From the NCBI GenBank assembly GCA_022791775.1, contig JAAVZT010000003.1, positions 38,980 through 102,979 on the forward strand: DNA of 64,000 nucleotides. The letters run 5' to 3'. The DNA is from Bacilli bacterium (GTDB taxonomy: Bacteria > Bacillota_I > Bacilli_A > RF39 > UBA660). The notes beneath the pieces are model-generated. The model was not told the origin of the DNA. It was given only the letters and a program-made list of their open reading frames with translations, and did not search any database. Within the stretch, counting starts at the first letter, position 1, and each line of letters starts with the position of its first letter. This document shows positions 1 through 31,100 of this stretch, piece by piece. The position numbers and the translations under genes are program-made.

Positions 1-17
1 AACAAATTGAGTTAAAT

Positions 18-779
18 ATGGAAAGTGCTTTACAAAAACAGGAATTTAAAATTTATTATCAACCTAAAGTGTATGTACGAAATGGCTCTCTTGCTGGAGC
101 AGAAGCACTAGTTAGATGGGAGAAAGATGAAACTTTAATTCCACCAAATCATTTTATTCCTCTTTTTGAGAAAAATAAATTCATTATTAAATTAGATTTA
201 TATGTATTTGAAACAGTTTGTAAACACATGAAAGAATGGCGAGAAAAGTGGGAGCATTTTCCTGTGATATCAGTAAATATTTCAAAAGAGCATTTTACGG
301 ATGAAAATTTTATAATAAAATATGCTAAAATTGCCGATAAATATAGCATTCCCCACGAAATGATTGACTTAGAAATAACGGAAAGTGCAACATCTGATGA
401 AAGTATTAATATTGTTCAAATCATCAATAATATCAAAAAACAGGGATTTTTAATCTCTTTAGACGATTTCGGGGTAGGATCCTCATCTTTAGGTATGCTA
501 CAACAATTAAATATTGATATTATCAAAATTGATAAGACCTTTATTGATCAAGCCAATTTAAAAAGTGATCGAAATATTATTAATTACATTGCCTTGATGT
601 CTCAAAAATTAGGTGTCAAAACAATCGTAGAAGGGATCGAAAAAAAAGATCAAGTAGAATTTATCCAAAAATTAAAATGTGATATGATTCAGGGATATTA
701 TTATTCGAAACCGCTACCCAAAAAAGATTTTGAAGAATATCTTCAAGAAAATAAATATTATAAAAAAGGTAAGAAATAA
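18..779 (+). CDS. EAL-domain protein (c-di-GMP phosphodiesterase-like). The reading frame is open back to the window edge, so the gene may be 5'-truncated here
   Basis: Motifs YYQP, EALVRW, DDFGVGSSSL, KIDKTFI, EGIE and QGYYYS are typical of EAL domains. There is no in-frame stop between position 3 and the ATG at 18. Confidence 0.75.
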   Translation: MESALQKQEFKIYYQPKVYVRNGSLAGAEALVRWEKDETLIPPNHFIPLFEKNKFIIKLDLYVFETVCKHMKEWREKWEHFPVISVNISKEHFTDENFIIKYAKIADKYSIPHEMIDLEITESATSDESINIVQIINNIKKQGFLISLDDFGVGSSSLGMLQQLNIDIIKIDKTFIDQANLKSDRNIINYIALMSQKLGVKTIVEGIEKKDQVEFIQKLKCDMIQGYYYSKPLPKKDFEEYLQENKYYKKGKK

Positions 780-857
780 AATAGATCATGATTCATTTCA
801 TGATTTTTTCTTTGCTATACATGAAAAAAAGCATTGATTTATCATCAATGCCTCATA

Positions 858-1103
858 TTATAGCGTTATTTCACCTAGTTTAAGCAATTCCACAACTGCT
901 TGAGCACGACCTTTTACCCCAAGCTTCTGCATTGCATTTGAAATATGATTTCGAACTGTTTTTTCGCTAATTCCAAGAAAATCAGCAATCTCCTTTGTCG
1001 ATTTATTTAATACCAAAAGTTCAAAAACCTCTTGTTCTCGTATTGTTAGTATTTTTTTGTTCATAACTTCCCTCACTTTCTTGATGATACTTCTAATACT
1101 CAT
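858..1103 (-). CDS. gerE: GerE, a LuxR-family HTH sporulation transcription regulator
   Basis: 81 aa consisting of the HTH only. The stretch REQEVFELLV..KEIA..ISEKTVRNHISNAMQKLGVKGRAQAVVELLKLGE is near-identical to Bacillus GerE as remembered. Confidence 0.8.
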   Translation of the reverse strand: MSIRSIIKKVREVMNKKILTIREQEVFELLVLNKSTKEIADFLGISEKTVRNHISNAMQKLGVKGRAQAVVELLKLGEITL

Positions 1104-1155
1104 AATATTTTATGAAATAAAAAAAGAGTTGTGAGAGAAACCGCCCAAAATTACG

Positions 1156-1662
1156 TTATTTTTGAAACTTAACAGTAATATACATTTTTTTAGAATATAG
1201 TGATTGAATACTTCGTATAATATTATTTGCTGTTTCTACACTATGATCTTTTGATTCAACAACCACACTTATTTGATCATTTTGTACTTTTACAAAACTA
1301 TTCAACTGAAATTCATCTTTAATTTTCTTTTCTAATTCTTCTTCTTTACCCTTATTCGCATTTAAGGCAATGAGTTCGTCGTATGCATCATTTTTTTCTT
1401 GTAAGGTAGCTGTATCATCCAATAAAATAGTCTGTAGTTCATTCATAGCTTTTAACATTTCTTCTTCATCATCTACTCTTAAAGCAGCCAAAATACTAGA
1501 TTCTTCAATATTAACATTTGCTGGAGTCGTGTTTTCGTTGATGTCATTGTTATTATCCAAAATTCGGGAAAGCGTATCATCACTCATAGTGACGTAATAG
1601 ATACTAAGTACTAAAATTAAACTAAAAAGCGTTACAAACCATAATCCTTGTTTATTAATCAT
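1156..1662 (-). CDS. spoIIIAH: SpoIIIAH-like membrane-anchored protein. It stands alone, with no other spoIIIA genes adjacent
   Basis: The N-terminus MINKQGLWFVTLFSLILVLSIYYVTMS closely parallels B. subtilis SpoIIIAH (MLKKQTVWLLTMLSLVVVLSVYYIMS). It has a single TM segment, an acidic linker and a conserved C-terminal domain. Confidence 0.55.
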   Translation of the reverse strand: MINKQGLWFVTLFSLILVLSIYYVTMSDDTLSRILDNNNDINENTTPANVNIEESSILAALRVDDEEEMLKAMNELQTILLDDTATLQEKNDAYDELIALNANKGKEEELEKKIKDEFQLNSFVKVQNDQISVVVESKDHSVETANNIIRSIQSLYSKKMYITVKFQK

Positions 1663-1767
1663 ATGATCCCTCCATAGAACTATTATAATATATGGGATTG
1701 TTTGGCAATTTATTACATGAAATGAAAGTTATATGTTATAATAAAAAAATAGAAGAGTGGTGCCACT

Positions 1768-2499
1768 ATGTATGAAATTTCCAAAGTGTTTTTGGTGTTC
1801 TTATTATATTGTTTATTCGGATATATTGCAGAAATGACCATGTGTATTATCGTCGATCATAAAATAACAAATCGTGGATTTTTATGTGGGCCCGTTATTC
1901 CAATTTATGGAGTTGGAAGCGTTTTTTTAACTTTAATATTGGAACCATTTAAACATAATCCTTTCATTATTTTTTTCTTTGGAATTATCATTACCACAGT
2001 AATTGAATATATCACCAGCTATTTATTAGAAAAGATATTTCATAATCGTTGGTGGGATTATAGTAATAATAAATTTAATATTAATGGTCGAATATGTCTT
2101 TTAAACAGTACTTTATTTGGAATCGGATCCTTAATAATTATTTATTTAGCCAATCCAATTTTTCATGATTTTTTAAATCAAATGAATCGTATTGCATTAA
2201 TTATTACTGCCATTGTTTTATTTATTATCTTTTGTGCAGATGTAGTTTATTCCTGTATTGTGGCATATAATTTACGAAATCAAATCATTATTTTTAGTGA
2301 ATTAAAAAATGAAAAATTAGCTCGAATTCCAGGAATGCTAGAACGTATGTTAAAAAAACGAGTAAAAAAACTAAAAAAATATCCAAATCGTTTATTAAAA
2401 GCTTTTCCTTATTTACAAAAAAGCAATGAAAAAGAATTTGAAATTATTAAAAAATTACAAAATAATGCAAAGAAAAAGAAAGCAAAAAAGAAAAAATAA
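1768..2499 (+). CDS. polytopic membrane protein, possibly of the putative ABC-transporter type IV / CmpB-like family, with a Lys-rich C-terminal tail
   Basis: Several predicted TM helices; CGPVIPIYG motif; the C-terminus is KK-rich. Confidence 0.4.
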   Translation: MYEISKVFLVFLLYCLFGYIAEMTMCIIVDHKITNRGFLCGPVIPIYGVGSVFLTLILEPFKHNPFIIFFFGIIITTVIEYITSYLLEKIFHNRWWDYSNNKFNINGRICLLNSTLFGIGSLIIIYLANPIFHDFLNQMNRIALIITAIVLFIIFCADVVYSCIVAYNLRNQIIIFSELKNEKLARIPGMLERMLKKRVKKLKKYPNRLLKAFPYLQKSNEKEFEIIKKLQNNAKKKKAKKKK

Positions 2500-2510
2500 A
2501 GATTGCCAAA

Positions 2511-2537
2511 TAGCCCTCTGCTGGCTATTTTTTTTTT
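2511..2537 (+). terminator. rho-independent terminator
   Basis: Stem tagcc/ggcta followed by T10. Confidence 0.6.
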
Positions 2538-2644
2538 GCCTAATTGCAATAGATAAGTTTTAAGGTAACAAATTGTAACATAAAAAATAAAAATAAAAAA
2601 GGAAATGAGCTTTTTTTATTGTATATGAATAGTGGAGGGAGAAA

Positions 2645-4717
2645 ATGCAAAAAAGAGTAATTATTAAGCAACAAGATCAAAAGGACTGCGGACCTTGTTG
2701 TTTATTATCTTTTATTAAATATTATGGCGGTTATGTTCCACTAGAAAAAATTCGAATAGATTGCAACACCTCATCTAGGGGAACAAGTGCTTTTCATATG
2801 ATCGAAGGATTAAAATCATATGGCTTTGATGCATATGGTACCAAAATAAAAAAAGATCTTTTTTTTAAAACTAATTTTCCACTGCCAGCAATTGTTCATG
2901 TGGTATTAGATAATGGGCTAAATCATTATATGGTCTTATATGAAAAGCGAAAAGACAAAGTGATATTAATGGATCCAAGTAGTGGAAAGAAGGTGATGAA
3001 TGACACTGAATTTTTTTGGATATGGTCTGAATTTTTGTTAGTAGCTTATCCAAAAGAGAAAATTAAAATACTTGATGAAGAAAAAAGTTTTTTTCAATTA
3101 AGTAAACAATACTTAGGTCAAGAGAAATTATTACTGTGGAAAAATTTAAAAACACATTTTTTGTTTGCTTTAATCGGTTTAATATTAACATTTTATGTCA
3201 GGACATCCTTAAATTATTTAGATCAAAAAGAAAAACTAATCGCTTGTATGATTTTATTTGGGGTTCTTCTGATTTTCAAATTACTTTTAACACAAGAGTA
3301 TTTATTAGAACAAAAAGAATTAAACAAAAAATTAGAATTGACCCATGCTTCAAATTATTTAGAACATATTTTTAAACTCCCTCTATTATATTATAAATTG
3401 CGCAGTTCCAGTGATTATTTAATCCGCTTTTGGGAAGCTATGGAATTAAAATTAATATATAGTGATGTAATGCAAAAGATTATTTTAGGTAGTGTTACCA
3501 TTGTAATATGTTTTTATTTCATATATTTTTTATTTCCTACCTTTTTCCCATTTTTAGGGATTACCGCTGGAATATACTATATATTTCACGTTTTAATAGT
3601 AAAAATAAGCTACCAACAAGAGCAAAAGTTTTTAAAGGCCAAAGTAAAATTTCAACAAGAATTATTAGAAAATATAGAAGGATATGAAGTTTATTATTAT
3701 TTAAATCAAAGAAAAATTCAAAAGCAAAAGGTAGAAGAGGAATTTATTTCGTTTTTAGAAATAAAGGATGAGAAAACTGTTTTTTATCAAAGAGTATCTT
3801 TTATACAGCATGTATTAAAAGAATGTATTCATTTTAGCGTCTTAACATTAGGCATTATAGCGATCTATAAAAAAGAGATTCCCATTGTAAATTTTCTGTT
3901 CCTTCAAGAAATGACCTCTTACTTAATTCAATCCTTAGAAAGTTTAGCCAGTCAAATTCCTAAAGAAAAATATTTGTTATCTCTATTGAGAAAGAATGCC
4001 GAATTTTTAACTATTCCAGTAGAAAAAGATGATACCAAAAAAGAAATATTCAAAATAAATGGCGACATATATTTTAAGCAGATATCATATTCTTATAATC
4101 AATATAATTATGTTTTAAAAAATCTGAATTTACATATTATATTCGGATCGCACGTGCAATTATTTGGACAAAGTGGCTGTGGGAAAAGTACTATTTGTAA
4201 ATTAATATTACGCCTATTAGAGCCACTAGAGGGTAAAATATTAATAGGTCCTATAAATATTTTAGACATAAACCTACCATCTATCAGATCTTCAATTCTT
4301 TATTTGAATCAGAGAAGTCATTTACTTACAGGAACAATTTGGGAAAATATAATTATGGGCCGAAATATAGATATGAAGCGTTTTTACCAAGTTTGCGAGA
4401 TTTGTCATTTAGAAGAAATCGTAGCCAAAAAGCCGTTGCGTTATGAAACCACAATCCAATGTCATGAGGAAAATTTGTCAGGAGGTGAAAAACAAAGGAT
4501 CATGTTAGCAAGAACACTATATGGAAATGCTTTCATATATTTATTTGATGAATCATTAAGTGAGGTGGATGAAAAATTAGAAAAAGATATTATCAAGCGA
4601 ATGCGAGAATTTTTGAAAGCAAAAACAATTATATATATTAGTCATAAAAATTATAAATCTTTGTTTGATGAAGTAGTAAAGTTAGAAGCATGTTATGATA
4701 GAGTCCTTATATCATAA
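2645..4717 (+). CDS. ABC transporter with an N-terminal peptidase C39 domain (bacteriocin / double-glycine peptide processing and export; LagD/ComA/LcnC type)
   Basis: N-terminal QKDCGPCCLLSF (catalytic Cys) with His/Asp further downstream. Six TM helices. Walker A GQSGCGKST and ABC signature LSGGEKQRIMLAR. Confidence 0.85.
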   Translation: MQKRVIIKQQDQKDCGPCCLLSFIKYYGGYVPLEKIRIDCNTSSRGTSAFHMIEGLKSYGFDAYGTKIKKDLFFKTNFPLPAIVHVVLDNGLNHYMVLYEKRKDKVILMDPSSGKKVMNDTEFFWIWSEFLLVAYPKEKIKILDEEKSFFQLSKQYLGQEKLLLWKNLKTHFLFALIGLILTFYVRTSLNYLDQKEKLIACMILFGVLLIFKLLLTQEYLLEQKELNKKLELTHASNYLEHIFKLPLLYYKLRSSSDYLIRFWEAMELKLIYSDVMQKIILGSVTIVICFYFIYFLFPTFFPFLGITAGIYYIFHVLIVKISYQQEQKFLKAKVKFQQELLENIEGYEVYYYLNQRKIQKQKVEEEFISFLEIKDEKTVFYQRVSFIQHVLKECIHFSVLTLGIIAIYKKEIPIVNFLFLQEMTSYLIQSLESLASQIPKEKYLLSLLRKNAEFLTIPVEKDDTKKEIFKINGDIYFKQISYSYNQYNYVLKNLNLHIIFGSHVQLFGQSGCGKSTICKLILRLLEPLEGKILIGPINILDINLPSIRSSILYLNQRSHLLTGTIWENIIMGRNIDMKRFYQVCEICHLEEIVAKKPLRYETTIQCHEENLSGGEKQRIMLARTLYGNAFIYLFDESLSEVDEKLEKDIIKRMREFLKAKTIIYISHKNYKSLFDEVVKLEACYDRVLIS

Positions 4718-5129
4718 TAAAGTATCTTACTTAAGTAAGAAGAAAAAAATAATTCCAGTGGGATTGTATTTTAGTATGATCGTAACTTGCTTTCTTTTGC
4801 TTTCATGTAGTATTTCCATATCATCAACAAATCCAATATTTGCAATTTATCAAAAAGAAAATAACACCTTGCTTTTTTCTTGGCCAATTAGCGAAATAGA
4901 AACGTTATCTTATTATGAGAAGATGAAAATAGAAAATCAAATAGTAGATTTTAAAATAAAAAATATGAGTAACTTATTGGTAGATGAGGTTACAATGCAG
5001 AATGTTCAAAAAATCGAAATAGAATCTCCTAAAAGTTTTTTAGATCAGCAAGTATTAAAAGTATACCTATTAGATCGAAAAGAAAAAATAATCTTAAAAA
5101 TTAAAAAAATAATATGGAAAGGAAAATAA
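4695..5129 (+). CDS. small putative lipoprotein encoded between the exporter and the peptide genes. The true start is probably the ATG at 4776. Candidate immunity or accessory protein
   Basis: The internal Met is followed by IVTCFLLLSCSISISS, a lipobox-like LLSC. The ORF overlaps the end of the exporter gene if started at 4695. Confidence 0.45.
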   Translation: MIESLYHNKVSYLSKKKKIIPVGLYFSMIVTCFLLLSCSISISSTNPIFAIYQKENNTLLFSWPISEIETLSYYEKMKIENQIVDFKIKNMSNLLVDEVTMQNVQKIEIESPKSFLDQQVLKVYLLDRKEKIILKIKKIIWKGK

Positions 5130-5270
5130 ATGAAATTATCCAATATACAATTGCAAGAAATATATGGAGGGGAGGCAGCAGGACTTATTATTTTAGGACT
5201 AGCTTTAATGACTACATTAATTGTAGGAATTATAGATGGTTTAGTACGTCCGTTAAAATGTCATGAATAA
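5130..5270 (+). CDS. double-glycine-leader peptide precursor (46 aa), putative class II bacteriocin peptide A
   Basis: Translation MKLSNIQLQEIYGG|EAAGLIILGLALMTTLIVGIIDGLVRPLKCHE. The leader fits the LSxxELxxIxGG consensus (L-12, S-11, L-7, I-4, GG-1). The mature part is hydrophobic with GxxxG-like motifs. A GGAAAGG ribosome-binding site lies upstream. Not in the ORF track because it is under 60 aa. Confidence 0.6.
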   Translation: MKLSNIQLQEIYGGEAAGLIILGLALMTTLIVGIIDGLVRPLKCHE

Positions 5271-5277
5271 ATTAAAA

Positions 5278-5430
5278 ATGGAAGAATTAATCCAAATAAA
5301 CGGAGGAAGTTCTTATTTAACTGCAAGTTTTATCAATGCGCTTGCGAGATGTATTGATTCAATTTTGGAGATAGGTAGATCCCTTGGTACAGCGATCGCC
5401 CGTTTAAAAAGTGGCAACATGTGCTCTTAA
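5278..5430 (+). CDS. second double-glycine-leader peptide precursor (50 aa), putative bacteriocin peptide B
   Basis: Translation MEELIQINGG|SSYLTASFINALARCIDSILEIGRSLGTAIARLKSGNMCS. The leader has E-8, L-7, I-4 and GG. The mature peptide is amphipathic with two Cys. It starts 8 nt after peptide A. Confidence 0.6.
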   Translation: MEELIQINGGSSYLTASFINALARCIDSILEIGRSLGTAIARLKSGNMCS

Positions 5431-5487
5431 ACTTGAAGATTATTTATTTTAATTATATAATAAAAATAATAAGAAAGGAGGGGTAAA

Positions 5488-6333
5488 ATGAAAAAGAAAA
5501 ATGGTTTTATTGCCGTTTCTTTAATTTACTCTTTCTTTCTAGTCTTTCTAATGTTAATGCTTTCGTCCTCCATTAAAAATGCTCAGACGCGATTATTACT
5601 AGGTACAATAAAAGAGGACATCAAAAATCAATTAGGGGCAAAATCAGAATTTATTATTACTTCTTTGCCAGCTAAAAATCCACTCACTAATGCCGATTAT
5701 CGAATTGGTGATGAAGTGAATTTTGTAGGAGAAAGTTGGTTTGTTGTGTCAAATCAAAATAATTCAGTAGTTTTAGTTTTAAAAAGAGCCTTAAACAAAG
5801 AAGAAGTGACGCAAGCTTTAGAAGTTTCTGAAACCAATAACAATTTCTTTGCTGGACAATGCAATGATACAAGTTGTCAAGTTCGCATGTGTATGTCCAC
5901 GTATTTTGATAATCTTTGCTATTATCAATCTAATAGCAACTTTGTATATTATAATTGGGATAAAAGTATCGCCAAACGAATTGTAGAATCTTGGTTTGAA
6001 AATAATCAAAATCTTCAAAAAGTTTGCCGTTTACAATATAATGCCACACTAGGAAAACGGATGTGTAGTAAAGATACCTTAATTCATATGACCTTTCATG
6101 ATGGAGTTCAAAATAACACTGGATATATTAGAATAGCTAGCAATAATGAAGCAGCAGCTGGTAGAACAACTTGGGTAAATAATAATGGAGGGTATTTAGC
6201 AACTGAATCATGGACTTTAACAAGACAAAATGCGACGAACGGAAAAAGTTTCATATATGATATAAAGGGCAATATTAGGCAAAATGAAAATGTAATGGCT
6301 ATAAGACCTGTAATTGAAGTGCGAAAAAGCTAG
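5488..6333 (+). CDS. hypothetical membrane-anchored, Cys-rich, Asn-rich extracytoplasmic protein
   Basis: N-terminal TM segment, then a roughly 250-aa domain with at least 8 Cys. No family recognised. Promoter-like TTGAAG and TATAAT elements and an AGGAGG site lie upstream. Confidence 0.4.
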   Translation: MKKKNGFIAVSLIYSFFLVFLMLMLSSSIKNAQTRLLLGTIKEDIKNQLGAKSEFIITSLPAKNPLTNADYRIGDEVNFVGESWFVVSNQNNSVVLVLKRALNKEEVTQALEVSETNNNFFAGQCNDTSCQVRMCMSTYFDNLCYYQSNSNFVYYNWDKSIAKRIVESWFENNQNLQKVCRLQYNATLGKRMCSKDTLIHMTFHDGVQNNTGYIRIASNNEAAAGRTTWVNNNGGYLATESWTLTRQNATNGKSFIYDIKGNIRQNENVMAIRPVIEVRKS

Positions 6334-6383
6334 AAGTAAAAAAGAAGTTGTGATAATATAATTAATATAAAGGAGGAAAAAAT

Positions 6384-6932
6384 ATGTGGTGGATTATTCC
6401 AATCGTTTTCATTATCATAATTGTTATTTATATAATCGGAATATATAATAAATTAATCGTCTTACGTAATAGAGTAAAAGATCAGTGGGCACAAATCGAT
6501 GTTCAATTAAAACGTCGTTTTGATTTAATTCCAAATTTAGTAAATACAATTAAAGGATATGCCAAGCATGAAAGTGAAACATTCGAAAATGTCATTAAAG
6601 CTCGAAATACATTCTTAAGCGCATCTTCAAAAGAAGAAGAGATCGAAGCAAACGGTGAACTTACAAATGCTATTTCAAAATTATTTGCCTTAACAGAGAG
6701 TTATCCTGACTTAAAAGCCAATCAAAACTTTCTAGATTTACAAGCGGATTTAAAGGATACTGAAAATAAAATAGCAGCAGCTAGACAATTTTATAACGAT
6801 ACAGTATTAAACTATAATAATCGAGTTGAATTATTTCCAAGTAATTTAATAGCAGGCTTGTTTCATTTTAAAAAAGAGTCTTTCTTTGAAGTAAACAAAC
6901 AAGAAAGAGAAAATGTAAAAGTTGAATTTTAA
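6384..6932 (+). CDS. lemA: LemA family protein
   Basis: N-terminal TM helix; QWAQIDVQLKRRFDLIPNLV matches the LemA signature. Confidence 0.85.
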   Translation: MWWIIPIVFIIIIVIYIIGIYNKLIVLRNRVKDQWAQIDVQLKRRFDLIPNLVNTIKGYAKHESETFENVIKARNTFLSASSKEEEIEANGELTNAISKLFALTESYPDLKANQNFLDLQADLKDTENKIAAARQFYNDTVLNYNNRVELFPSNLIAGLFHFKKESFFEVNKQERENVKVEF

Positions 6933-6971
6933 GCTTACAAAATGTAAGCTTATATTTTTGAGAGGAATTAT

Positions 6972-8879
6972 ATGAAAAAATTTTTATTTAGTTTAATAGT
7001 TTTCTTCCTACCGATAATTGTTCGAGCTTCATCCATTAATTATGATATTACTAATTTTTTAATTGATGCAACCGTTCAACCAAATGGCGATTTAAGTGTA
7101 AAAGAATTAATTGTTTTAGATGGAAATTTTAATGGATATGTGCGTGAATTACAATATAAAAATTTAAAATTAGATACCTATACTCCTGGCAATATTAATT
7201 TTGCTAATAGCGCAATTTATAATGCAGAAGGAATATATAATGTTCAGCTCGCAACTAAAAAAATGCGAACAAACGAAGTGGATTTTGAAACATTCCAAGA
7301 AACTTTTACCCCTTTAACAAAAGTAAGTAATGAAAAAATCGCTCAAAATGGAAATTACATTTTTAAAAATGACGAGCAAGTATTAAGTTATAAAATGTAT
7401 CAACGAGCAGAAGATGAAATGATAGCATTTTTAATCACTTACACGATTGATAAAGCTGTAGTAATTCATCAAGACATTGCTGAATTATACTGGACCTTTA
7501 TTGGTAGTGGATTTACAGATAAAATATATAATTTAAAAATTAGAGTTAACTTACCAAATTATCAAAAACCAGAATTTTATTTTTGGGCCCATGGTGATAT
7601 TACTGGAGAAATAGATAAGATTAGTTCTAGCCAAGTTTTAGCACAAATGAAGTCAGTCGATAAAAATTCTCCGATCGATCTAAGAATTCTATTTGCCAAA
7701 GATTGGCTGATAGAACCAAATGATTTGCGAAAATCAGAAGAAGAAGCTTTACCAAAAATTCGGGCAATTGAGGAGGAGCGAGCAGAAAGTGTAAATAAGC
7801 AACGAGAGTTTATAAGAGCTTTAGTAAAAATTGCAAGAGCTGGAACAAACTTTTATTATATCTTTCTGTTCAGTTTATGGATTTATATTTATTGGAAATT
7901 TGACCGAGAATACAAAAGCGATTTTAATTCAAAATATTATCGCGAATTTACTGGCGAATATAATGTTGAAGTAATTGATTATTTAATGAAGCATACCATT
8001 ACCCCAAATGCCATGAGTGCTTCAATCATGAATTTGATTTATAAAAAGAACATCAAAGTAGAAGAGTTAGACAATGAGAAAAAAAAGCAATATCGATTTT
8101 ATTATCTCAATAATGAAAATGTAAATGATACAGAACAAATTTTACTTGATTTTTTATTCGAACAGGTTGGAAAAAATGGAGAATTTACTACAAAAGACTT
8201 AGAAAAATATGCTAAATCTACGAAAACATATACTGATTTTTCGAAGCATTATTTAGAATGGGAGAATTGTGTCAAAAAAGACGCAGAGAAAGAACAATTC
8301 TATGAAACAAATGGCATACCAGTTGTAATGGGAATATTAGTTCTTTTATTCACTATCTTACTTTTTATGGTAGTGATGTATTATCATATAGATTACTTTC
8401 CTTGTTATTTTTTACTTCCAGTATCTATTGTTTTTTTAATATATACTATTGTAATCAAAAAAAGAACTAGAAAGGGAAACGAGCATTATTTAAGATGGAA
8501 AGCTTTTAAAAACTTTTTAGCTGACTTTGGAAATTTTAAAATAAAAGAATTACCTGAGATCATTTTATGGGAAAAATATTTGGTATATGCAACCTTATTT
8601 GGATTAGCCTCTGAAGTAGAAAAAAGCATGAATGTAAAGATAGCAGAATATGAGAGAACCCCTATGCATACAGAAGTTTATAATGGTTGGCATCCTTATA
8701 TTGATTTTCAAATTTTCCAAGCCATTAATCATTCTGTGAATCATGCAGTCTCAAGTAATATCCGCGCTACAACCGCTAATGCAAATAGTCGAAATAGCAG
8801 TGGATCAGGCTTGGGTGGTGGCGGATTCTCTGGCGGATCAGGTTTTGGAGGTGGCGGCGGCGGTGGCCACGGATTCTAA
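6972..8879 (+). CDS. DUF2207-type membrane protein, the usual partner of LemA, with a Gly-rich C-terminal tail
   Basis: Signal peptide, large N-terminal ectodomain, central TM helices and a C-terminal GGGGFSGGSGFGGGGGGGHGF. It sits immediately downstream of lemA. Confidence 0.7.
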   Translation: MKKFLFSLIVFFLPIIVRASSINYDITNFLIDATVQPNGDLSVKELIVLDGNFNGYVRELQYKNLKLDTYTPGNINFANSAIYNAEGIYNVQLATKKMRTNEVDFETFQETFTPLTKVSNEKIAQNGNYIFKNDEQVLSYKMYQRAEDEMIAFLITYTIDKAVVIHQDIAELYWTFIGSGFTDKIYNLKIRVNLPNYQKPEFYFWAHGDITGEIDKISSSQVLAQMKSVDKNSPIDLRILFAKDWLIEPNDLRKSEEEALPKIRAIEEERAESVNKQREFIRALVKIARAGTNFYYIFLFSLWIYIYWKFDREYKSDFNSKYYREFTGEYNVEVIDYLMKHTITPNAMSASIMNLIYKKNIKVEELDNEKKKQYRFYYLNNENVNDTEQILLDFLFEQVGKNGEFTTKDLEKYAKSTKTYTDFSKHYLEWENCVKKDAEKEQFYETNGIPVVMGILVLLFTILLFMVVMYYHIDYFPCYFLLPVSIVFLIYTIVIKKRTRKGNEHYLRWKAFKNFLADFGNFKIKELPEIILWEKYLVYATLFGLASEVEKSMNVKIAEYERTPMHTEVYNGWHPYIDFQIFQAINHSVNHAVSSNIRATTANANSRNSSGSGLGGGGFSGGSGFGGGGGGGHGF

Positions 8880-8899
8880 GCATAATTTATGCTTTTTTT
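8878..8899 (+). terminator. rho-independent terminator
   Basis: aagcata/tatgctt hairpin followed by T7. Confidence 0.5.
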
Positions 8900-8951
8900 C
8901 TTGTTATTTTAAACGAAATAAGTTAAAATATAAGCGAAAAGAAGTGAGAAA

Positions 8952-9368
8952 ATGATTAAAGAATTTAAAGAGTTTATTCATCGTGGAAATGTAATGGATT
9001 TAGCCGTGGGAGTCATCGTTGGTGGAGCTTTTTCCAGTATTGTTACATCTTTAGTTAATAACATATTAACCCCTATTTTGGGAATCTTTTTAGGAGGAGT
9101 AGATTTTAGTGGCTTAACTATAACCATTAAAGATGCTACCATTAGCTATGGCTTATTTGTTCAAAGTGTCATCGACTTTTTAATTGTAGCGTTTTGCATT
9201 TTCTTATTTGTTAAAATGATAAACAAGATTATGTCAGTCGGAAAGAAAGAAACAAAAGAAGAGCCAATTGTCTTAAAAAAGAAGGAAGAAGTCTTATTAT
9301 TAGAAGAGATTCGAGATTTGTTAAAAAAGAAGAGCCCAAAAAAAACGAAGCTAAAAAAGCAGGAATAA
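8952..9368 (+). CDS. mscL: large-conductance mechanosensitive channel MscL
   Basis: [31 protein letters not shown] is the canonical MscL N-terminus. Confidence 0.9.
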
Positions 9369-9369
9369 A

Positions 9370-10002
9370 ATGGAACTAATCATTCTTGGCGAAAAAATTG
9401 AAGTAGTTATTGAAAGAAAAAAAAATAAAAATGTGTATCTTCGATTCATAGATGAATATACACTTCAAATCACATGTAATTCATTCATAAGTAAACATCA
9501 AATAGAAAAAATTATAAAACAAAATGAAACTTCAATAACCAAAATGTATCTTCAAAAGAAAAAAGAAAGAAGCGATTCTAAATACTTTAAATATTTAGGC
9601 AAAAACTATACTCCTATTTATGAAAGTAATAATTCTGAGATTAGATTTACTACAGACACGATTTATGCTAAAAATGAAAAAAGTTTACAAAAATTTTATC
9701 ATGCAGAATGTTTTCGTATTTTTCAAAATGAACTAGAACGCATTTTACCTTGCTTTACTAATATTCCAAAATTTACATTAAAAGTAAGAACCATGAAAAC
9801 AAGATGGGGAGTAAATAATTTTGGAAGCCATACGATTACATTAAATAGTGAGTTATTAAAAAAGGATTTAGATTTAATTGATTATGTAATCATTCATGAA
9901 TTGTGTCATTTTTATGAGCCAAATCACAGTCCAAGCTTTTGGAGACATGTAGAAGAATTTTATCCAAAATACAAAGACGCTAGAAAGCGGTTAAGAGGTT
10001 AA
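9370..10002 (+). CDS. YgjP/DUF45-family metal-dependent hydrolase (M48-like)
   Basis: HELCHF zinc motif near the C-terminus with WRHVEEFYP, which is typical of DUF45. Confidence 0.6.
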   Translation: MELIILGEKIEVVIERKKNKNVYLRFIDEYTLQITCNSFISKHQIEKIIKQNETSITKMYLQKKKERSDSKYFKYLGKNYTPIYESNNSEIRFTTDTIYAKNEKSLQKFYHAECFRIFQNELERILPCFTNIPKFTLKVRTMKTRWGVNNFGSHTITLNSELLKKDLDLIDYVIIHELCHFYEPNHSPSFWRHVEEFYPKYKDARKRLRG

Positions 10003-10004
10003 AA

Positions 10005-10745
10005 ATGAAAATAGAATCCTTACAAAACAAAAAAGTAAAAGAATGGCAAAAATTAAAAGAAAAAAAATATCGTGATCAAAATAAATGCTTTTTGATAGAA
10101 GGTGATCATCTTCTAAAAGAAGCCTTAAAAAAAGACTTAGTCCTAGAGATTATTTCTATAAACTCGCATTATGCGAATTTAAATCTTCCATTTTTTGAAG
10201 TAACGCCTAATATTTTGCAAAAGATATCGCAACAAAAAAGCATACCAGAAGTAATAGCTATTTGTAAAAAAATAGAAAGTCATGAAATATCAGGAAGCGT
10301 TTGTATTTTGGATGGAATCCAAGACCCAGGAAATTTAGGAACAATTATTCGAAGCGCTATAGCTTTTCATGTAGAAACGCTTATATTGAGCAAAGATACA
10401 GTTGATATATATAATGAAAAAGTATTACGAGCAACAGAAGGAATGATATTTCATATAAATTTTATTCGCGAAGATCTTGACAAAATAATTCCCCTATTAA
10501 AACAACAAAAATATAAAATATATGGAACCGATGTACAAACAGGTATTCCCTTAAATGAAGTGACTTTTTCTAAAAAAAAATGTATTATAATCGGAAATGA
10601 AGGAAACGGAATGAAGGAAAAACAAAAAAAAGAATGTGATTCATTAATTCATATTCCAATTAATCCTGAATGCGAAAGTTTAAATGCTGCGATTGCTACA
10701 AGTATTATATTTTATGAAATGAATAGAAGTGTTGGGATATCATGA
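10005..10745 (+). CDS. TrmH/SpoU-family RNA 2'-O-methyltransferase
   Basis: SpoU methylase motifs (GIQDPGNLGTIIRSA, IIGNEGNGM, ESLNAAIA). Adjacent to rimM. Confidence 0.7.
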   Translation: MKIESLQNKKVKEWQKLKEKKYRDQNKCFLIEGDHLLKEALKKDLVLEIISINSHYANLNLPFFEVTPNILQKISQQKSIPEVIAICKKIESHEISGSVCILDGIQDPGNLGTIIRSAIAFHVETLILSKDTVDIYNEKVLRATEGMIFHINFIREDLDKIIPLLKQQKYKIYGTDVQTGIPLNEVTFSKKKCIIIGNEGNGMKEKQKKECDSLIHIPINPECESLNAAIATSIIFYEMNRSVGIS

Positions 10746-11236
10746 CAAAAGTATATGTGGGGAAAATTGTAAACACTCATGGAATTAAAGGTGAACTGAG
10801 ACTATTAAGTGATTTTGACTATAAAGAACGAATTTTTGTTTCGGGAAGTAAGATATTTATTGGAACAGAGTATCAAAAAGAAATAATAAAATCATATCGT
10901 CGTCATAAAAAGTTCGATATGATTGAATTAGAAGGATACCAAAATATAAATGAAGTGTTAGCTTATGTAGGAAAAAAAGTATATTGCAATCGAGAGGATC
11001 TTTATTTAAATCAGAAGGAATATTTGCTAGAGGACTTACTCCATTGCCATATTATAGAAAATCGAATAAATTATGGAGAAGTAACAGAAATTGTCTATAA
11101 TAATAACAATATTTTATTAAAAGTAAAGTATCAGAATAAATTCTTTTATATTCCAAAACAAGAGTACTTTATAGAAAAAATAAATATAAATGAAAAAAAG
11201 ATTTATGTAAATCACGTGAAAGGTTTGATCTTATGA
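10742..11236 (+). CDS. rimM: 16S rRNA processing protein RimM
   Basis: VGKIVNTHGIKGELRL N-terminus. In an operon with trmD, with overlapping stop and start. Confidence 0.85.
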   Translation: MTKVYVGKIVNTHGIKGELRLLSDFDYKERIFVSGSKIFIGTEYQKEIIKSYRRHKKFDMIELEGYQNINEVLAYVGKKVYCNREDLYLNQKEYLLEDLLHCHIIENRINYGEVTEIVYNNNNILLKVKYQNKFFYIPKQEYFIEKININEKKIYVNHVKGLIL

Positions 11237-11910
11237 GAATTGATATCCTGACACTTTTTCCAACTATGTTTCAAGGATTTTTAAGTGAATCCATCATTCA
11301 TCGAGCAATCGAGCAAAAAATAGTAGAAATCAATTTAATTAATTTTCGAGAATTCTCAACTTTAAACAATCATCAAGTAGATGATACTCCTTATGGAGGA
11401 GGAGGAGGAATGGTTTTAAGAATAGAACCATTGGTTTCTGCATTAGAATCTGTGAAAAGTGAAAATTCAAAAGTAATTTTATTATCTCCACAAGGAAAAA
11501 CTTGGAACCAAAAAAAAGCTGAATCTTTAAGTCAAGAAAAACATCTGATTTTAATCTGTGGTCATTATGAAGGCTTTGATGAGCGAATTTATCACTATAT
11601 TGATGAAGAAATTTCTATCGGTGATTACGTACTAACAGGAGGAGAAATTCCCGCTATGGTACTTTCAGATAGTATCATTCGCTTACTTCCTGGAGTTATA
11701 AAAGAAAATTCATTTAAAAATGAGTCCTTTCAAAACAATTTATTAGATTTTCCAACTTATACAAAGCCATATGAATTTCAAGGATTAAAAGTACCAGATA
11801 TTTTATTAAGTGGAGATCATGCTAAAATTGCTTCTTGGCGTTATGAAATGCAAGTGAAAAAAACCAAAGAAAATCGCCAAGATTTACTAAGGAGCGAAAG
11901 TGATGAATAA
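11233..11910 (+). CDS. trmD: tRNA (guanine37-N1)-methyltransferase TrmD
   Basis: MRIDILTLFPTMF plus GGGGGMVL and the SPQG motif. Confidence 0.9.
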   Translation: MRIDILTLFPTMFQGFLSESIIHRAIEQKIVEINLINFREFSTLNNHQVDDTPYGGGGGMVLRIEPLVSALESVKSENSKVILLSPQGKTWNQKKAESLSQEKHLILICGHYEGFDERIYHYIDEEISIGDYVLTGGEIPAMVLSDSIIRLLPGVIKENSFKNESFQNNLLDFPTYTKPYEFQGLKVPDILLSGDHAKIASWRYEMQVKKTKENRQDLLRSESDE

Positions 11911-12364
11911 ATTTATTTTAGAGTCAGAAAAAAAGAAAATGAAATGTAAAAAAGTACTCAATAATTTGAATGGGCTTCGAATGCATCCGCATTTTAAAAA
12001 TAAACCAGCATTAATTTCTATTAAAGAAATTATAATTATAAGAGAAGATTTAAAAAAAATCATTATTATAAAGCGCTTCAATAAAACCTATCGTTCCTTA
12101 ATTTCAATTGTCTTAGATGTTACAAGTAGCGATAATGCGACATCTTCTGATTGTATGATAGCTTTAAACGAAGTACGAAAGTTAGGCAATATACTTGATC
12201 AAAAATATCAATGTGATCTAGAAAAGAAAGAATACGATAAATTACAGAAGAAATTAGAAATATTACAAACAAAATTAAAAGAGAAATTAGTAGAAATACG
12301 CACGAATATTTTGCTTGAACAAATGAAAGAAATGCAAGAAAAAGAAAAAGGAAAAAGCCGTTAA
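11900..12364 (+). CDS. hypothetical coiled-coil protein
   Basis: ORF only. Lys/Glu-rich C-terminal coiled coil. No recognisable family. Confidence 0.3.
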   Translation: MMNKFILESEKKKMKCKKVLNNLNGLRMHPHFKNKPALISIKEIIIIREDLKKIIIIKRFNKTYRSLISIVLDVTSSDNATSSDCMIALNEVRKLGNILDQKYQCDLEKKEYDKLQKKLEILQTKLKEKLVEIRTNILLEQMKEMQEKEKGKSR

Positions 12365-27092: not shown

Positions 27093-27177
27093 TGGTGCAG
27101 GCGAAGGGACTTGAACCCCCATGGATCACTCCGCTAGATCCTAAGTCTAGTGCGTCTACCAATTTCGCCACGCCTGC
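27093..27177 (-). tRNA. tRNA-Leu (anticodon TAG)
   Basis: The reverse complement folds as a cloverleaf: GCAGGCG acceptor stem, anticodon loop CTTAGGA, long variable arm, encoded CCA. Confidence 0.85.
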
Positions 27178-27188
27178 ATATTTTAAAA

Positions 27189-27265
27189 TGGTGGACCTTG
27201 TAGGACTCGAACCTACGACCGACCGGTTATGAGCCGGTTGCTCTAACCAACTGAGCTAAAGGTCC
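27189..27265 (-). tRNA. tRNA with a CAT anticodon, probably tRNA-Ile2 (lysidine), possibly elongator Met
   Basis: Reverse complement GGACCTTTAGCTCAGTTGGTTAGAGC...CTCATAA...GGTTCGAGTCCTACAAGGTCCACCA. The acceptor C4/C5 resembles ileX-type tRNAs. Confidence 0.8.
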
Positions 27266-27390
27266 ATTGCTATTTAATGATAGCACAAAAAGAAATTGCA
27301 TGCAAGTAAAAGATAACACAGTTTTAAATCGAATCCAAATTAGAATTAAATTGATAATTTTGGGAACTATGATATAATAAATATCGATAA

Positions 27391-29103
27391 GTGAGTGATG
27401 AAGAAGTGAAAAATAATATTGTCAAAAAAATAAGTGTTATTTTAATAGGATTTTTAGCTTTTTTTGGAGTGAATCAAGTAAATGCAGGAATTAATTATTC
27501 AGATGGTTTAAAATGTGGTCCAGATAAAGTTGAATCAGATGGCAGAGTTTCGAAAACTTGTACATTAGGATTTACGGTTACAGAAAAAGATGCGAATTAT
27601 AACAAAATAACAGCCAAATTTACTTTGAAAAACGCAATTTTATCTAAATTTGAAGTAGAAAATGGTTGGAATATAAGCAATTCTAGCACAAATGCTTATA
27701 CATTAGAAACAGGTTCTCCTTCACTAAGTGTAGGTTATCACAAATTAGCAACCGTTGTATTTTATAAAGTAGATACAGCAGCAGAATGTACAATTACTTT
27801 TCAATATCAATTTGCTAAGATTAATCGTTCTTGTTCTATTTATCAAAATAATTATTATGGAAAAAATGGAACTATTGTAGATAAATTGACGTATCAAAAA
27901 GAATGTGAACGAAATGTTTGTACGATCCTATCTGATGGTACGAGATATGGAAAAAATGGAACCATCGTTGATGAACTAACGTACCAAAAAGAATGTGAAC
28001 AAAATGTTTGTAGGATTCTATCCGATGGCACAAGATATGGAAAAAATGGAACCATTGTAGATGAATTAACATACCAAAAAGAATGTGAACGAAATGTCTG
28101 TAAAATATTATCCGATGGTACAAGATATGGAAAAAATGGAACCATTGTTGATGAACTAACATACCAAAAAGAATGTGAGCGAAATGTCTGCAAGATATTA
28201 TCCGATGGCACCAGATATGGAAAAAATGGAACTATTGTAGATGAATTAACGTATCAAAAAGAGTGTGGAGAAAATGTCTGTAAAATATTACCAGATGGCA
28301 CCAGATATGGAAAAAATGGAACTATTGTAGATGAACTAACCTATCAAAAAGAATGTGAGCGAAATGTCTGTAGAATATTATCAGATGGGACCATCTATGG
28401 TAAAGATGGTATCATTGTCGATAAATTAACCTATCAAAAAGAATGTGAAACAAATATCTGTAAAGTATTACCAGATGGAACAAGATACGGAAAGAATGGA
28501 ACCATCGTGGATGAACTAACCTATCAAAAAGAATGTGAACGAAATGTCTGTAAAATCTTATCAGATGGTACGAGATATGGAAAAGATGGAATCATTGTGG
28601 ATGAGTTAACTTATCAAAAAGAATGTGAAAAAAATATTTGTAAAATCTTATCAGATGGGACTATTTATGGTCCAACTGGAAGCATTATTGATAAATTAAC
28701 ATACCAAAAAGAATGTGAAGAAAATTATTGTAGAATCTTAACCGATGGTACCATTTATGGAAAAGATGGACTAATTGTAGATCAAGAGACCTATGATAAA
28801 GATTGTAGTGAAAAACTTTACTGTGAAAAGATCGATGGAAATTATTATGGGAAAAATGGCGAAAAAGTATCAGAAGCGCAATATAAACTGGAATGTTTTA
28901 AACATTATTGTGAACAAATAGGAGACAAATACTTTGATAATCAAGGAAAAGAAGTTTCAAAAGCAGATTATCAAAAAGCCTGTTTAAACGAAATAGATAA
29001 TCCGCAAACTGGTTCTATGATTCCAGGTTTATACTTAGTAGCAGCAATCGCAATTGGAAGTGGCATGATCTATATTTCAAAAAAGAAAAATCGTTTCTTA
29101 TAA
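27391..29103 (+). CDS. cell-surface repeat protein: signal peptide, about eleven tandem 30-aa Cys-containing repeats and a C-terminal NPQTG cell-wall sorting signal
   Basis: Repeat unit YGKNGTIVDELTYQKECERNVCKILSDGTR. The C-terminus NPQTG + GSMIPGLYLVAAIAIGSGMIYI + SKKKNRFL is sortase-B-like (S. aureus NPQTN, B. anthracis NPKTG) followed by a hydrophobic segment and a basic tail. Confidence 0.7.
   Translation: MSDEEVKNNIVKKISVILIGFLAFFGVNQVNAGINYSDGLKCGPDKVESDGRVSKTCTLGFTVTEKDANYNKITAKFTLKNAILSKFEVENGWNISNSSTNAYTLETGSPSLSVGYHKLATVVFYKVDTAAECTITFQYQFAKINRSCSIYQNNYYGKNGTIVDKLTYQKECERNVCTILSDGTRYGKNGTIVDELTYQKECEQNVCRILSDGTRYGKNGTIVDELTYQKECERNVCKILSDGTRYGKNGTIVDELTYQKECERNVCKILSDGTRYGKNGTIVDELTYQKECGENVCKILPDGTRYGKNGTIVDELTYQKECERNVCRILSDGTIYGKDGIIVDKLTYQKECETNICKVLPDGTRYGKNGTIVDELTYQKECERNVCKILSDGTRYGKDGIIVDELTYQKECEKNICKILSDGTIYGPTGSIIDKLTYQKECEENYCRILTDGTIYGKDGLIVDQETYDKDCSEKLYCEKIDGNYYGKNGEKVSEAQYKLECFKHYCEQIGDKYFDNQGKEVSKADYQKACLNEIDNPQTGSMIPGLYLVAAIAIGSGMIYISKKKNRFL
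27856..28845 (+). repeat. tandem 90-bp coding repeats (about 11 copies, 85-95 % identical)
   Basis: The repeated DNA unit tatggaaaaaatggaac...gatggtacgaga is visible directly in the sequence. More degenerate copies continue to about 28990. Confidence 0.8.
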
Positions 29104-29107
29104 CAAA

Positions 29108-29144
29108 AAGTTAATACAAATGAAAAAAGTATTAACTTTTTTTG
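29108..29144 (+). terminator. rho-independent terminator (10-bp stem)
   Basis: aagttaatac / gtattaactt stem followed by a T-run. Confidence 0.6.
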
Positions 29145-29169
29145 TAAGTATGATATAATAAAAAAGAAT

Positions 29170-29245
29170 TGTCCTATAGCCAAGCGGTAAGGCAACGGGC
29201 TCTGACCCCGTCATTTCATTGGTTCGAATCCAATTAGGACAGCCA
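29170..29245 (+). tRNA. tRNA-Gln (anticodon CTG)
   Basis: TGTCCTA/TAGGACA acceptor, D-loop AGCCAAGCGGTAAGGC typical of Gln/Glu, anticodon loop CTCTGAC, encoded CCA. Confidence 0.8.
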
Positions 29246-29256
29246 AATAAATAAAA

Positions 29257-29279
29257 AAGCTCTCAAAAGGAGCTTTTTA
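29257..29279 (+). terminator. short terminator hairpin after tRNA-Gln
   Basis: agctc/gagct stem followed by T4. Confidence 0.35.
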
Positions 29280-29280
29280 A

Positions 29281-30540
29281 ATGGAAAGAATAAATTACTA
29301 TTTATATAAAATATTTGGTATACTAAAAGTAGGTGGAAACATGAAAAAAGTGTTAAATTTCAAAAAAGAAAATTTAAAAATTTGCTTGACTGTAATAAGT
29401 GTACTTTTAATGCTAATGGGTTTTGGCTTTTATTATTACCAAAATAATTCTGTAAATCAAGCCAAAGAATTAGAACGAAAAAGAGCGGAAAAAATAGCAG
29501 AAATCTTGCAAAAAGAAATCAATTCCTCTTTAATAGAACAAACGGAAATACAAAACACAATTATTCAAATGGTATTTCAAACAAAAGATCAAGAAAGAAA
29601 AACTTATCTAATTCGAATGCAAGATGGAGAAGAAGTAGGTTTAAAAGAATTAATTAAAGAAGAGCACATGGAAAATTTTAAAAAAAAGGTTAGAGAGTTA
29701 ATCAATTTAAAATATCCTAAATTTATTGCTGATGTTTTAAACTATGGGAATGGGACTGTATCTTACCAACTAAAAGAAAACGAATTAATTTTATATTTTT
29801 ACCAATTTATAATAAACCCGAAATTAGAAGAAGAGATAAACTTGCATGTTAATTATAACGAAATAAAAGATTACATTTCCGTTCCTGTGAAATTAGATGA
29901 TGAATATGAGGTAGAGAATGGCTATCATTATCAAAAGGATAAAAAAACAATTGCTTTAACATTTGATGATGGTCCAAATGGAAAAAGAACTCGAAAATTA
30001 TTAGAATTATTAAGTCAAAATAAAATGCACGCAACATTTTTTATGGTAGGAAATCGAATGGCTGCATCTCCGGATTTGGTAAAAGAAGTATTACAAAGCG
30101 AAAACGAAATAGGAAGTCATTCTTACAATCATAAAAATTTAAGTCGTTTACAAGTGGAAGAATTAAAAAAAGATGCAGAAAATATCAACCATATTTATGA
30201 AAGTATTACTGGCCAAAACTTACATTTATTAAGACCACCTTATGGTAGTGTAAATAATCGAATGAAAGAAAATTTAAATTACGCTTTTGTAAACTGGAAT
30301 TTAGATACAGAAGATTGGCGATATCGTGATTCAAATCATGTATATAATGCAGTGCTAAATAAAGTAGGAGATGGAGATATTATACTAATGCATGACTTAT
30401 ATGATAGCACAGTAGAAGCCGTAGAAAAATTATTGCCCGAATTATATGTACGCGGCTTTCAGGTAGTTAGTGTAACCGAGTTAGCAACCTTAAAAGGAAA
30501 AACATTAGAGCTTCATAATACATATCATTCTTTTAAATAA
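29281..30540 (+). CDS. polysaccharide deacetylase (NodB / carbohydrate esterase 4 domain) with an N-terminal TM helix and a long N-terminal extension. The likely start is the Met at 29341
   Basis: TFDDGP, HSYNH and LRPPYG NodB motifs in the C-terminal half. MKKVLNFKKENLKICLTVISVLLMLMGF is the TM anchor. Confidence 0.8.
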   Translation: MERINYYLYKIFGILKVGGNMKKVLNFKKENLKICLTVISVLLMLMGFGFYYYQNNSVNQAKELERKRAEKIAEILQKEINSSLIEQTEIQNTIIQMVFQTKDQERKTYLIRMQDGEEVGLKELIKEEHMENFKKKVRELINLKYPKFIADVLNYGNGTVSYQLKENELILYFYQFIINPKLEEEINLHVNYNEIKDYISVPVKLDDEYEVENGYHYQKDKKTIALTFDDGPNGKRTRKLLELLSQNKMHATFFMVGNRMAASPDLVKEVLQSENEIGSHSYNHKNLSRLQVEELKKDAENINHIYESITGQNLHLLRPPYGSVNNRMKENLNYAFVNWNLDTEDWRYRDSNHVYNAVLNKVGDGDIILMHDLYDSTVEAVEKLLPELYVRGFQVVSVTELATLKGKTLELHNTYHSFK

Positions 30541-30913
30541 GTTCGTCAGGTTCAGTATCAATCGTGGTACTAAAAATCTCTGTAAATAAATAAATGATAC
30601 CACCAATTAAAAACAAACAAGCTGCCACAAAATTTGCTTCTTGTAAAAATAATTGCTTTAAAGAAACGTTATTTCTAGTCTCCTTAATATGTTTGTAATT
30701 TAAATAAACAAAATATAAATAGATTAAAAAACTGACAAAAAAAATAGTAATATTAATGAAACGAAATTCTTTTCGTGATTTATCCTCGTGCTTTATAATC
30801 CAATCCCGTTCTAAGACATTAGAAATGATTGCTCCTAAAACAATAAAGGAGTAAACAATCCAAATAAAATCCTCTGTTTCCAATTCTTGCAATATTTGAG
30901 ATAGATTTGCCAT
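30533..30913 (-). CDS. hypothetical small membrane protein
   Basis: ORF with 3-4 predicted TM helices. Confidence 0.4.
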   Translation of the reverse strand: MANLSQILQELETEDFIWIVYSFIVLGAIISNVLERDWIIKHEDKSRKEFRFINITIFFVSFLIYLYFVYLNYKHIKETRNNVSLKQLFLQEANFVAACLFLIGGIIYLFTEIFSTTIDTEPDELI

Positions 30914-30999
30914 AATAAAAATATATGATATCTATGAAATAAGTATTAAATTTGATTGACTATATAAAATATATAGTGTAAAATGAAAAAGTAAGAAAT

Positions 31000-31090: not shown

Positions 31091-31100
31091 TAAAAAAAAT

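Follow-up and report, generated by a model that had tools for sequence, protein, structure and literature searches.

Paired double-glycine-leader peptides beside a C39-peptidase exporter in an uncultured Bacilli bacterium: a putative class IIb-like two-peptide bacteriocin cassette

What would two genes of about fifty codons each, lying directly behind an exporter that carries its own peptidase, do for an uncultured bacterium? The question is raised by a 64,000-nucleotide (nt) stretch of DNA, called the window throughout (GenBank assembly GCA_022791775.1, contig JAAVZT010000003.1, positions 38,980 to 102,979 of the forward strand), from the metagenome-assembled genome (MAG) of an uncultured "Bacilli bacterium", with a G+C content of 27-30% as judged by eye. 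Within positions 2645-5430, four plus-strand genes are closely packed, encoding a peptidase-containing ABC exporter (PCAT), a protein of 144 amino acids (aa) that we call ACC, and two short peptides, PepA and PepB. The reading that we favour from sequence comparison, and hold to be fairly probable, is that this four-gene operon makes and exports an unmodified pair of double-glycine (GG) leader peptides that would act jointly as a class IIb-like membrane-active bacteriocin. The original prediction had proposed the same, and its proposal stands as the best available interpretation of the architecture and homology; antimicrobial activity, synergy and processing of the two peptides are putative, being argued by analogy. 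The features on which the argument turns are as follows.

2645-4717, plus strand: PCAT exporter, 690 aa, with a C39 domain (residues 5-138), a transmembrane domain (179-431) and an ATPase (491-637)
4695-5129, plus strand: ACC, a 144-aa single-pass membrane protein whose gene overlaps the exporter end by 23 nt and whose stop codon abuts the pepA ATG
5130-5270, plus strand: pepA, 46 aa, MKLSNIQLQEIYGG followed by EAAGLIILGLALMTTLIVGIIDGLVRPLKCHE
5130-5171, plus strand: sequence of the 14-aa double-glycine leader of PepA, MKLSNIQLQEIYGG
5172-5270, plus strand: 32-aa mature core of PepA, EAAGLIILGLALMTTLIVGIIDGLVRPLKCHE, plus stop; a transmembrane-like helix bearing GIIDG (GxxxG) and the family tail D-G-x-x-R-P-x-x-C
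5263-5307, plus strand: 15-aa double-glycine leader of PepB, MNKLKMEELIQINGG; its ATG lies inside the last pepA codons and its MNKL start is conserved
5308-5430, plus strand: 40-aa mature core of PepB, SSYLTASFINALARCIDSILEIGRSLGTAIARLKSGNMCS, plus stop; a long amphipathic helix that includes GRSLG (GxxxG) and has a Cys close to its C-terminal end

Are the two short frames genes, and where do they begin? Two small head-to-tail open reading frames (ORFs) on the plus strand, directly downstream of the exporter and the 144-aa gene, are visible in the sequence as originally described, with two corrections to that description. They had been called unannotated, and the public record holds both as hypothetical proteins (HFH86_00480 and HFH86_00485, next to the exporter MCI8393945.1). 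PepB had been given as a 50-aa product of an ORF 8 nt away from pepA; its start is most likely the ATG at 5263 rather than that at 5278, because all close orthologues begin with MNKL, and this start yields a 55-aa precursor and an 8-nt overlap with pepA. The same start restores the complete -12/-8/-7/-4 leader consensus of PepB, so that GG leaders can be read on both precursors as claimed, each ending in GG and bearing hydrophobic residues at -4, -7 and -12. The monoisotopic mass of mature A is 3341.9 Da and that of mature B 4202.2 Da.

A genome scan with the exporter led to two MAGs (L001 and L002) whose exporters are 50% identical to that of the window, and in both the gene order reads SpoIIIAH-like, CmpB, exporter, 143-aa protein, 47-aa A-type peptide, 55-aa B-type peptide, 270-280-aa protein, LemA and DUF2207. 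This order is also kept in L011, L012, L013, L098 and L100, and all seven loci carry orthologues of both peptides at the same position. Between lineages, pN is ~0.28 against a pS of ~0.6, and dN/dS falls between 0.23 and 0.42, an upper bound since dS is saturated. The positional orthologues and the low dN/dS show that both peptide genes are genuine and evolve under purifying selection.

The call of a C39-peptidase ABC exporter was borne out. All three Pfam matches lie above the gathering score, namely C39 (6e-32, 110.7 bits against 22), ABC_tran (1.6e-24, 87.5 bits against 25) and ABC_membrane (5.9e-07, 29.9 bits against 28). The NCBIfam model TIGR01193 gives 3.3e-85 and 287 bits, under its subfamily cut-off of 523.85, and the exporter also falls under the cut-offs of the other NCBIfam PCAT models; by its architecture it is a PCAT, not a TIGR01193-level member. 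It aligns over its full length with PCAT1 (4ry2, 5e-72, residues 2-668) and ComA (8hf4, 7.5e-70), and its DQKDCG, NHYMVLY and MDPS stretches line up with their PCAT1 counterparts, as do the retained ATPase motifs. The DCG, NHY and DP stretches of the C39 domain are those that we take to hold the catalytic Cys, His and Asp. In one related locus (L012, 3540-3565), a run of seven T residues contains a frameshift that divides the exporter gene; eight T residues would restore the frame, so that this may be either an assembly error or a real pseudogene. L012 was not used as evidence of a decaying cassette, as the T7/T8 homopolymer may reflect misassembly and its ACC is intact with an alternative start.

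The four genes follow one another with overlaps of 23, 0 and 8 nt, and the unit is bounded by the following sites.

2508-2530, plus strand: intrinsic-terminator-like hairpin with an 8-bp stem and a T-run; it ends the upstream cmpB-like gene and forms the 5' boundary of the cassette transcription unit
5433-5461: promoter-like site preceding the gene after pepB
6497-6517 and 6930-6952: the next terminator-like sites, past the gene that follows the cassette

Between the terminator and the exporter ATG at 2645 lies a 114-nt A+T-rich spacer with a strong ribosome-binding site, GGAGGGAG. Given the tight overlaps together with the flanking terminator and promoter-like site, the four cassette genes are probably co-transcribed and translationally coupled.

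How far does the arrangement extend beyond the window? An exhaustive search with the B-type profile returned 358 cluster representatives at E<=1e-3 and 47 at E<=1e-10, and nearly all of the matches are 50-57 aa long and align end to end. This overturned the impression of a tiny family left by word-indexed searches, which had returned 4 clusters for pepA and 8 for pepB. Scanning metagenomes for GRS[LI]G[TNS]AI[RA]R, a motif built on a tight 8-sequence alignment, gave 80 loci from what are, judging by contig names, gut, rumen, termite and digester samples, and all hosts are uncultured Bacilli MAGs. Hidden Markov models (HMMs) were run over all ORFs of ~90 loci for linkage counts. An A-type ORF lies no more than 120 nt upstream of B in 78 of 83 loci and a PCAT within 1.2 kb upstream in 38 of 39, making the universal cassette core PCAT, A and B. 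The pair is also mis-called in public data, where two "proteins" of 91-101 aa (P0109 and P0162) each join one A-type and one B-type peptide in a single gene call.

The A-type leaders of 74 relatives carry I or V at -4, L at -7 and E at -8, with GG in 71 of them, and the cleavage site throughout the family is GG or AG. Their cores of 29-31 aa follow the consensus ...AGxTFxIGVIDGxVRPLKCN, with conservation of 90% or more, up to invariance, at G33, D36, G37, R40, P41 and C44 across 46 sequences. The description of core A as very hydrophobic with GxxxG-like spacing is confirmed by GIIDG in the window copy and by the motif in 73 of the 74 relatives. A lone Cys stands 1-2 residues from the end in 68 of 74, and most A cores have a charge of +1 or +2.

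B-type precursors follow the consensus MxxLxxxELxxIxGG and then xxSxxxxNAxxxxxxxxxxxGRxxGSxIRRxxxxxxCxx, with cores of 39-40 aa and a charge of +2 to +5; GxxxG is present in 75 of 75 B cores, a lone Cys lies 2-3 residues from the end in 68 of 75, and G38, G42 and C54 of PepB are at least 90% conserved. An AlphaFold2 (AF2) model of PepB built from 127 sequences has a mean predicted local distance difference test (pLDDT) score of 81.7, exceeding 90 in the core, with a short leader helix at 6-10 and one continuous helix at 21-50. The 18-residue hydrophobic moment (muH) reaches 0.66, compared with 0.37 +/- 0.09 in shuffled sequences, of which 0.35% reach 0.66. The single long helix and this moment bear out the proposed amphipathic core. 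The two Cys residues noted in PepB are both there, but the first (in ARCID) is specific to a sub-lineage and only the C-terminal one is family-wide. This restriction, together with the single straight helix of the model, tells against an intramolecular disulfide in PepB, which we do not favour.

Do the peptides work together? Loci with several bacteriocin peptides that act independently are common, as in the blp loci, and among the exceptions to the close A-B linkage are two related loci (L020 and L067) in which a further gene is tolerated between the two peptide genes. On this basis PepA and PepB might be independent one-peptide bacteriocins of class IId type that share an exporter and show no synergy. 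We regard this as quite improbable, given the strict one-to-one order of A and B across ~80 loci, the 8-nt overlap that couples their translation, and the complementary character of the peptides, A being hydrophobic and B amphipathic and cationic, each with GxxxG and a single C-terminal Cys. A pair acting jointly accords better with two different peptides being encoded by adjacent genes on the same strand, in A-then-B order in those 78 of 83 related loci, with both carrying GG leaders beside a C39 exporter predicted to cleave them, and with GxxxG occurring in both cores, which are helical and hydrophobic or amphipathic, the charge of window core A being the exception (see below).

Comparison with curated bacteriocin families places the A-type peptides more firmly than the B-type. 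Among the A-type relatives, 42 of 46 match TIGR03949 (class IIb bacteriocin, lactobin A/cerein 7B family) at E<=0.1, with a best value of 1e-7, and several exceed its cut-off of 21.5 bits, in alignments that span the leader and the hydrophobic core. The orthologues of the window PepA score 31.1 (L001), 24.3 (L011) and 19.3 bits (L002), so that PepA itself is a diverged member of this curated class IIb family whose window copy has moved past detection. It had been noted that the peptides resemble no familiar bacteriocin; by HMM comparison this is true of the window peptides themselves, but not of the PepA orthologues that pass the TIGR03949 cut-off. PepB matches NF038035 at E 0.11 over residues 4-17 only, that is, in the leader, and by these profile comparisons PepB, ACC and a third small protein of related loci, C, fall in no curated family.

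The leaders bear on another possibility, that PepA, PepB or both act as ComC/BlpC-type pheromones in quorum sensing. They weakly match the ComC, BlpC, EntF-inducer and VP1 models (E 0.001-0.04), with the similarity confined to the leader, and PCATs do export such pheromones (PMC7018657). Every one of these matches is below cut-off, and the mature peptides are 30-40 aa long, membrane-like, paired and equipped with GxxxG. No histidine kinase or response regulator was found among the scanned proteins of window positions 1-12000, nor, by precomputed Pfam assignments, among the gene calls on either side of the cassette in 11 loci (the 80 metagenome loci were not scanned). A pheromone role is highly improbable on this evidence.

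How, then, would a bacteriocin pair of this kind operate? The short helical leaders would dock in the C39 domain and be cut after Gly-Gly as the ABC part exports the peptide. Leader docking in C39, cleavage after GG and ATP-driven export are established for PCAT1, ComA and LagD, and cleavage and export are predicted for the cassette because its exporter is homologous over the full length and keeps the C39 motifs. Mature A would be a hydrophobic helix and mature B a 30-residue amphipathic cationic helix. In class IIb systems, GxxxG motifs are thought to drive helix-helix pairing in the membrane, and on the model of lactococcin G and of plantaricins EF and JK, A and B may pair through their conserved GxxxG motifs, insert into target membranes and permeabilise them. 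More speculatively, the single conserved C-terminal Cys of each might join A to B by a disulfide.

A producer of such a pair would be expected to protect itself, and a candidate is found in most relatives. In at least 53 of 80 loci, pepB is followed by the third gene, C, whose start overlaps the pepB stop (examples are L015 7153-7332 and L017 7159-7305, with about 50 further loci). Its product is 36-59 aa long, mostly 47-59, and leaderless, with a basic N-terminus, a membrane helix and the stretch ...FKFGNxVGTFIRxxxxxC. Profile-profile comparison (hhalign) of the mature B helix with C gave a probability of 93.8% and an E value of 1.7e-7 over 36 columns, covering the whole mature helix, which marks C, at the level of sequence, as a leaderless membrane-anchored paralogue of mature B. 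C is a candidate immunity protein of these relatives. It probably provides self-protection there and, speculatively, could bind A unproductively as a mimic of B. In L033, a large serine recombinase gene (2782-4464) stands in place of the exporter, ACC and pepA, while pepB and C remain, followed by one intervening gene and then rpsU-yqeY; an integrative element seems to have split this cassette.

The C profile has no match in the 64-kb window, and C is absent from the window's entire lineage, which leaves ACC as the only immunity candidate in the operon. ACC had been described as a small lipoprotein. It is a conserved cassette member and a single-pass membrane protein, with one N-terminal membrane helix followed by ~95 aa predicted to be all-beta; the lipobox-like L-x-S-C is limited to the window's close relatives and does not extend to the wider family. 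The window copy has LLSC after the membrane helix and close orthologues have ILSC, SSC or ASC, distant members have no Cys there, and the stretch ahead of the helix, at ~25 aa, is long for a lipoprotein signal. In most related loci the gene that separates exporter and pepA is ACC, but it evolves fast (mean identity 30%). It has no sequence match in Pfam, NCBIfam or the PDB, and its single-sequence AF2 model (pLDDT 56) is too weak for use; for the same reasons, the idea that it is a miniature HlyD/LcnD-type accessory protein is unsupported. Accessory and immunity functions are both candidate roles.

ACC and C tend to occur together across 51 non-redundant loci (Fisher p = 0.0017, uncorrected for phylogeny), distributed as follows.

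ACC present: C present in 26 loci, C absent in 9
ACC absent: C present in 4 loci, C absent in 12

The 12 loci with neither (L022, L029, L062, L069, L084, L089 and others) are minimal cassettes in which the exporter is followed directly by pepA and pepB.

What speaks against a bacteriocin? Several observations do, beginning with the window peptides themselves. Neither PepA nor PepB matches any Pfam family at E<=1, including Bacteriocin_IIc (PF10439); PepA matches no curated bacteriocin model, TIGR03949 included, even at E<=10; and the matches of the B family to bacteriocin models are mostly limited to the leader and below family cut-offs. The window core A has a net charge of -1 and is not cationic. 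No small membrane ORF follows pepB in the window, where class IIb systems would place an immunity gene, and the minimal PCAT-A-B loci likewise have no immunity candidate. The conservation pattern points the same way. Over 789 locus pairs with a PCAT identity of at most 60%, mean pairwise identity is 55% for A and 52% for B, compared with 39% for PCAT and 30% for ACC, so that the cores exceed the exporter, and loci with exporters only ~30% identical have almost the same A tail, (V/I)DG(Y/F)VRPLKC(N). Many divergent loci (L015, L017, L029, L067, L069, L076, L078 and others) share one site, with rsmD on one side of the cassette and rpsU-yqeY on the other; rsmD lies upstream in 16 of 38 loci and rpsU-yqeY downstream in ~30 of 67, while in the window's lineage the site is between cmpB and a 281-aa gene. 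No copy of the cassette was found among PLSDB plasmids or in IMG/VR, and carriage on mobile elements was set aside on that account. The stable site, the conserved cores and the lack of plasmid or viral copies suggest a function that has been retained for long and passed on vertically, and not a weapon with rapid turnover.

These facts, from the missing immunity gene onwards, are what would be expected if the pair had a conserved, non-antagonistic role for its producer, either as a small heterodimer belonging to the membrane or envelope or as an effector directed at the producer itself, with the PCAT serving simply for export and maturation. We consider this rather unlikely. L014 and L099 have the 281-aa gene with no cassette next to it, and in L033 the recombinase insertion interrupts the cassette, which is therefore dispensable and movable; the A-type peptides belong to a curated class IIb bacteriocin family; and no pair of peptides exported by a PCAT is known to us to serve in housekeeping. 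A bolder proposal, which we think doubtful, is that A, B and C represent a new two-peptide design, in which A and B would form a disulfide-linked heterodimer and C would replace B beside A, giving immunity by mimicry, or else that the pair is a conserved, vertically inherited envelope or membrane effector of a clade of uncultured gut Bacilli and no weapon at all. The effector version would account both for cores better conserved than the exporter and for lineages, such as that of the window, that manage without C. The class IIb-like bacteriocin remains the reading we prefer for the locus as a whole.

Two further plus- and minus-strand neighbours were considered in the surroundings of the cassette.

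5488-6333, plus strand: 281-aa protein with no Pfam match and the N-terminus MKKKNGFIAVSLIYSFFLVFL
858-1103, minus strand: GerE-type helix-turn-helix gene, part of a conserved sporulation-gene neighbourhood

The MKKKNGFIAVSLIYSFFLVFL N-terminus is near-invariant in 64 clusters, in which the C-terminal domains differ (156-296 aa), and it resembles a prepilin-type signal without the Glu at +5. In L099, a homologue adjoins two T2SSF genes and an N_methyl gene. A role for the 281-aa protein as immunity or pilin-like partner was rejected, as was kinship of its N-terminus with C (E>0.1 with the C profile; the IYS...GT resemblance is due to chance). L014 and L099 each have a homologue with no cassette beside it, so the gene is a neighbour, not a cassette member. 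Elsewhere in the window, positions 27093-33341 hold seven ordinary tRNA genes (Leu, Met, Gln, Ser, Lys, Glu and Ile), and no Rfam family other than tRNA was found in the window.

A text search of the available literature for the core motifs found no paper, and the main text of a study mining gut class II bacteriocins names no such family (PMC12648112). If active, the cassette would encode the first described bacteriocin family of widespread uncultured Bacilli of gut, rumen and digester, and its short unmodified peptides form a ready set for synthesis. Curated libraries would gain three families that they lack, namely the peptides of B type, C and the 144-aa ACC, which genome miners at present see only as "hypothetical". 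The family could also serve as a test bed for three questions: whether a two-peptide toxin can be covalently joined through C-terminal cysteines, whether an immunity protein can arise by duplication of a toxin subunit, and why a supposed weapon should be more conserved than its own exporter.

Finally, how does the cassette compare with systems already known? With PCAT1 of Clostridium thermocellum, whose substrate is CtA, and with ComA of Streptococcus, the window exporter shares its full length, the Cys, His and Asp of the C39 domain and the ATPase motifs, at an identity of ~30% or less, and the cassette leaders weakly resemble that of CtA (7s5j_B, E 0.15). Its partner is a 144-aa single-pass protein, in place of an HlyD/LcnD-type accessory protein of ~450 aa. 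To the lactobin A/cerein 7B family, the likeness lies in the double-glycine leader, the Gly/Ala/Ile-rich hydrophobic core, the adjacent gene for a partner peptide and the PCAT in the locus. The differences are that the window PepA obtains no score, that the partner PepB is uncurated, that all hosts are uncultured Bacilli MAGs, and that the family-specific tail of the A-type peptides, (V/I)DG(Y/F)VRPLKC(N), falls on the margin of the 45 positions of the TIGR03949 model or beyond them. Lactococcin G and plantaricins EF and JK each consist of two unmodified helical peptides of 25-40 aa, encoded by adjacent genes, with GG leaders and a dedicated C39 ABC exporter. The cassette resembles them in its paired helical peptides, GG leaders, C39 exporter and GxxxG motifs; sequence similarity ends with the leader (NF038034 and NF038035 matches are below cut-off), and the window cassette, unlike these systems, is without an immunity gene. 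Unlike their counterparts, the cassette peptides each have one conserved Cys near the C-terminus, and where the model class IIb systems rely on an unrelated multi-pass protein for immunity, the putative immunity gene of the relatives encodes a paralogue of peptide B.

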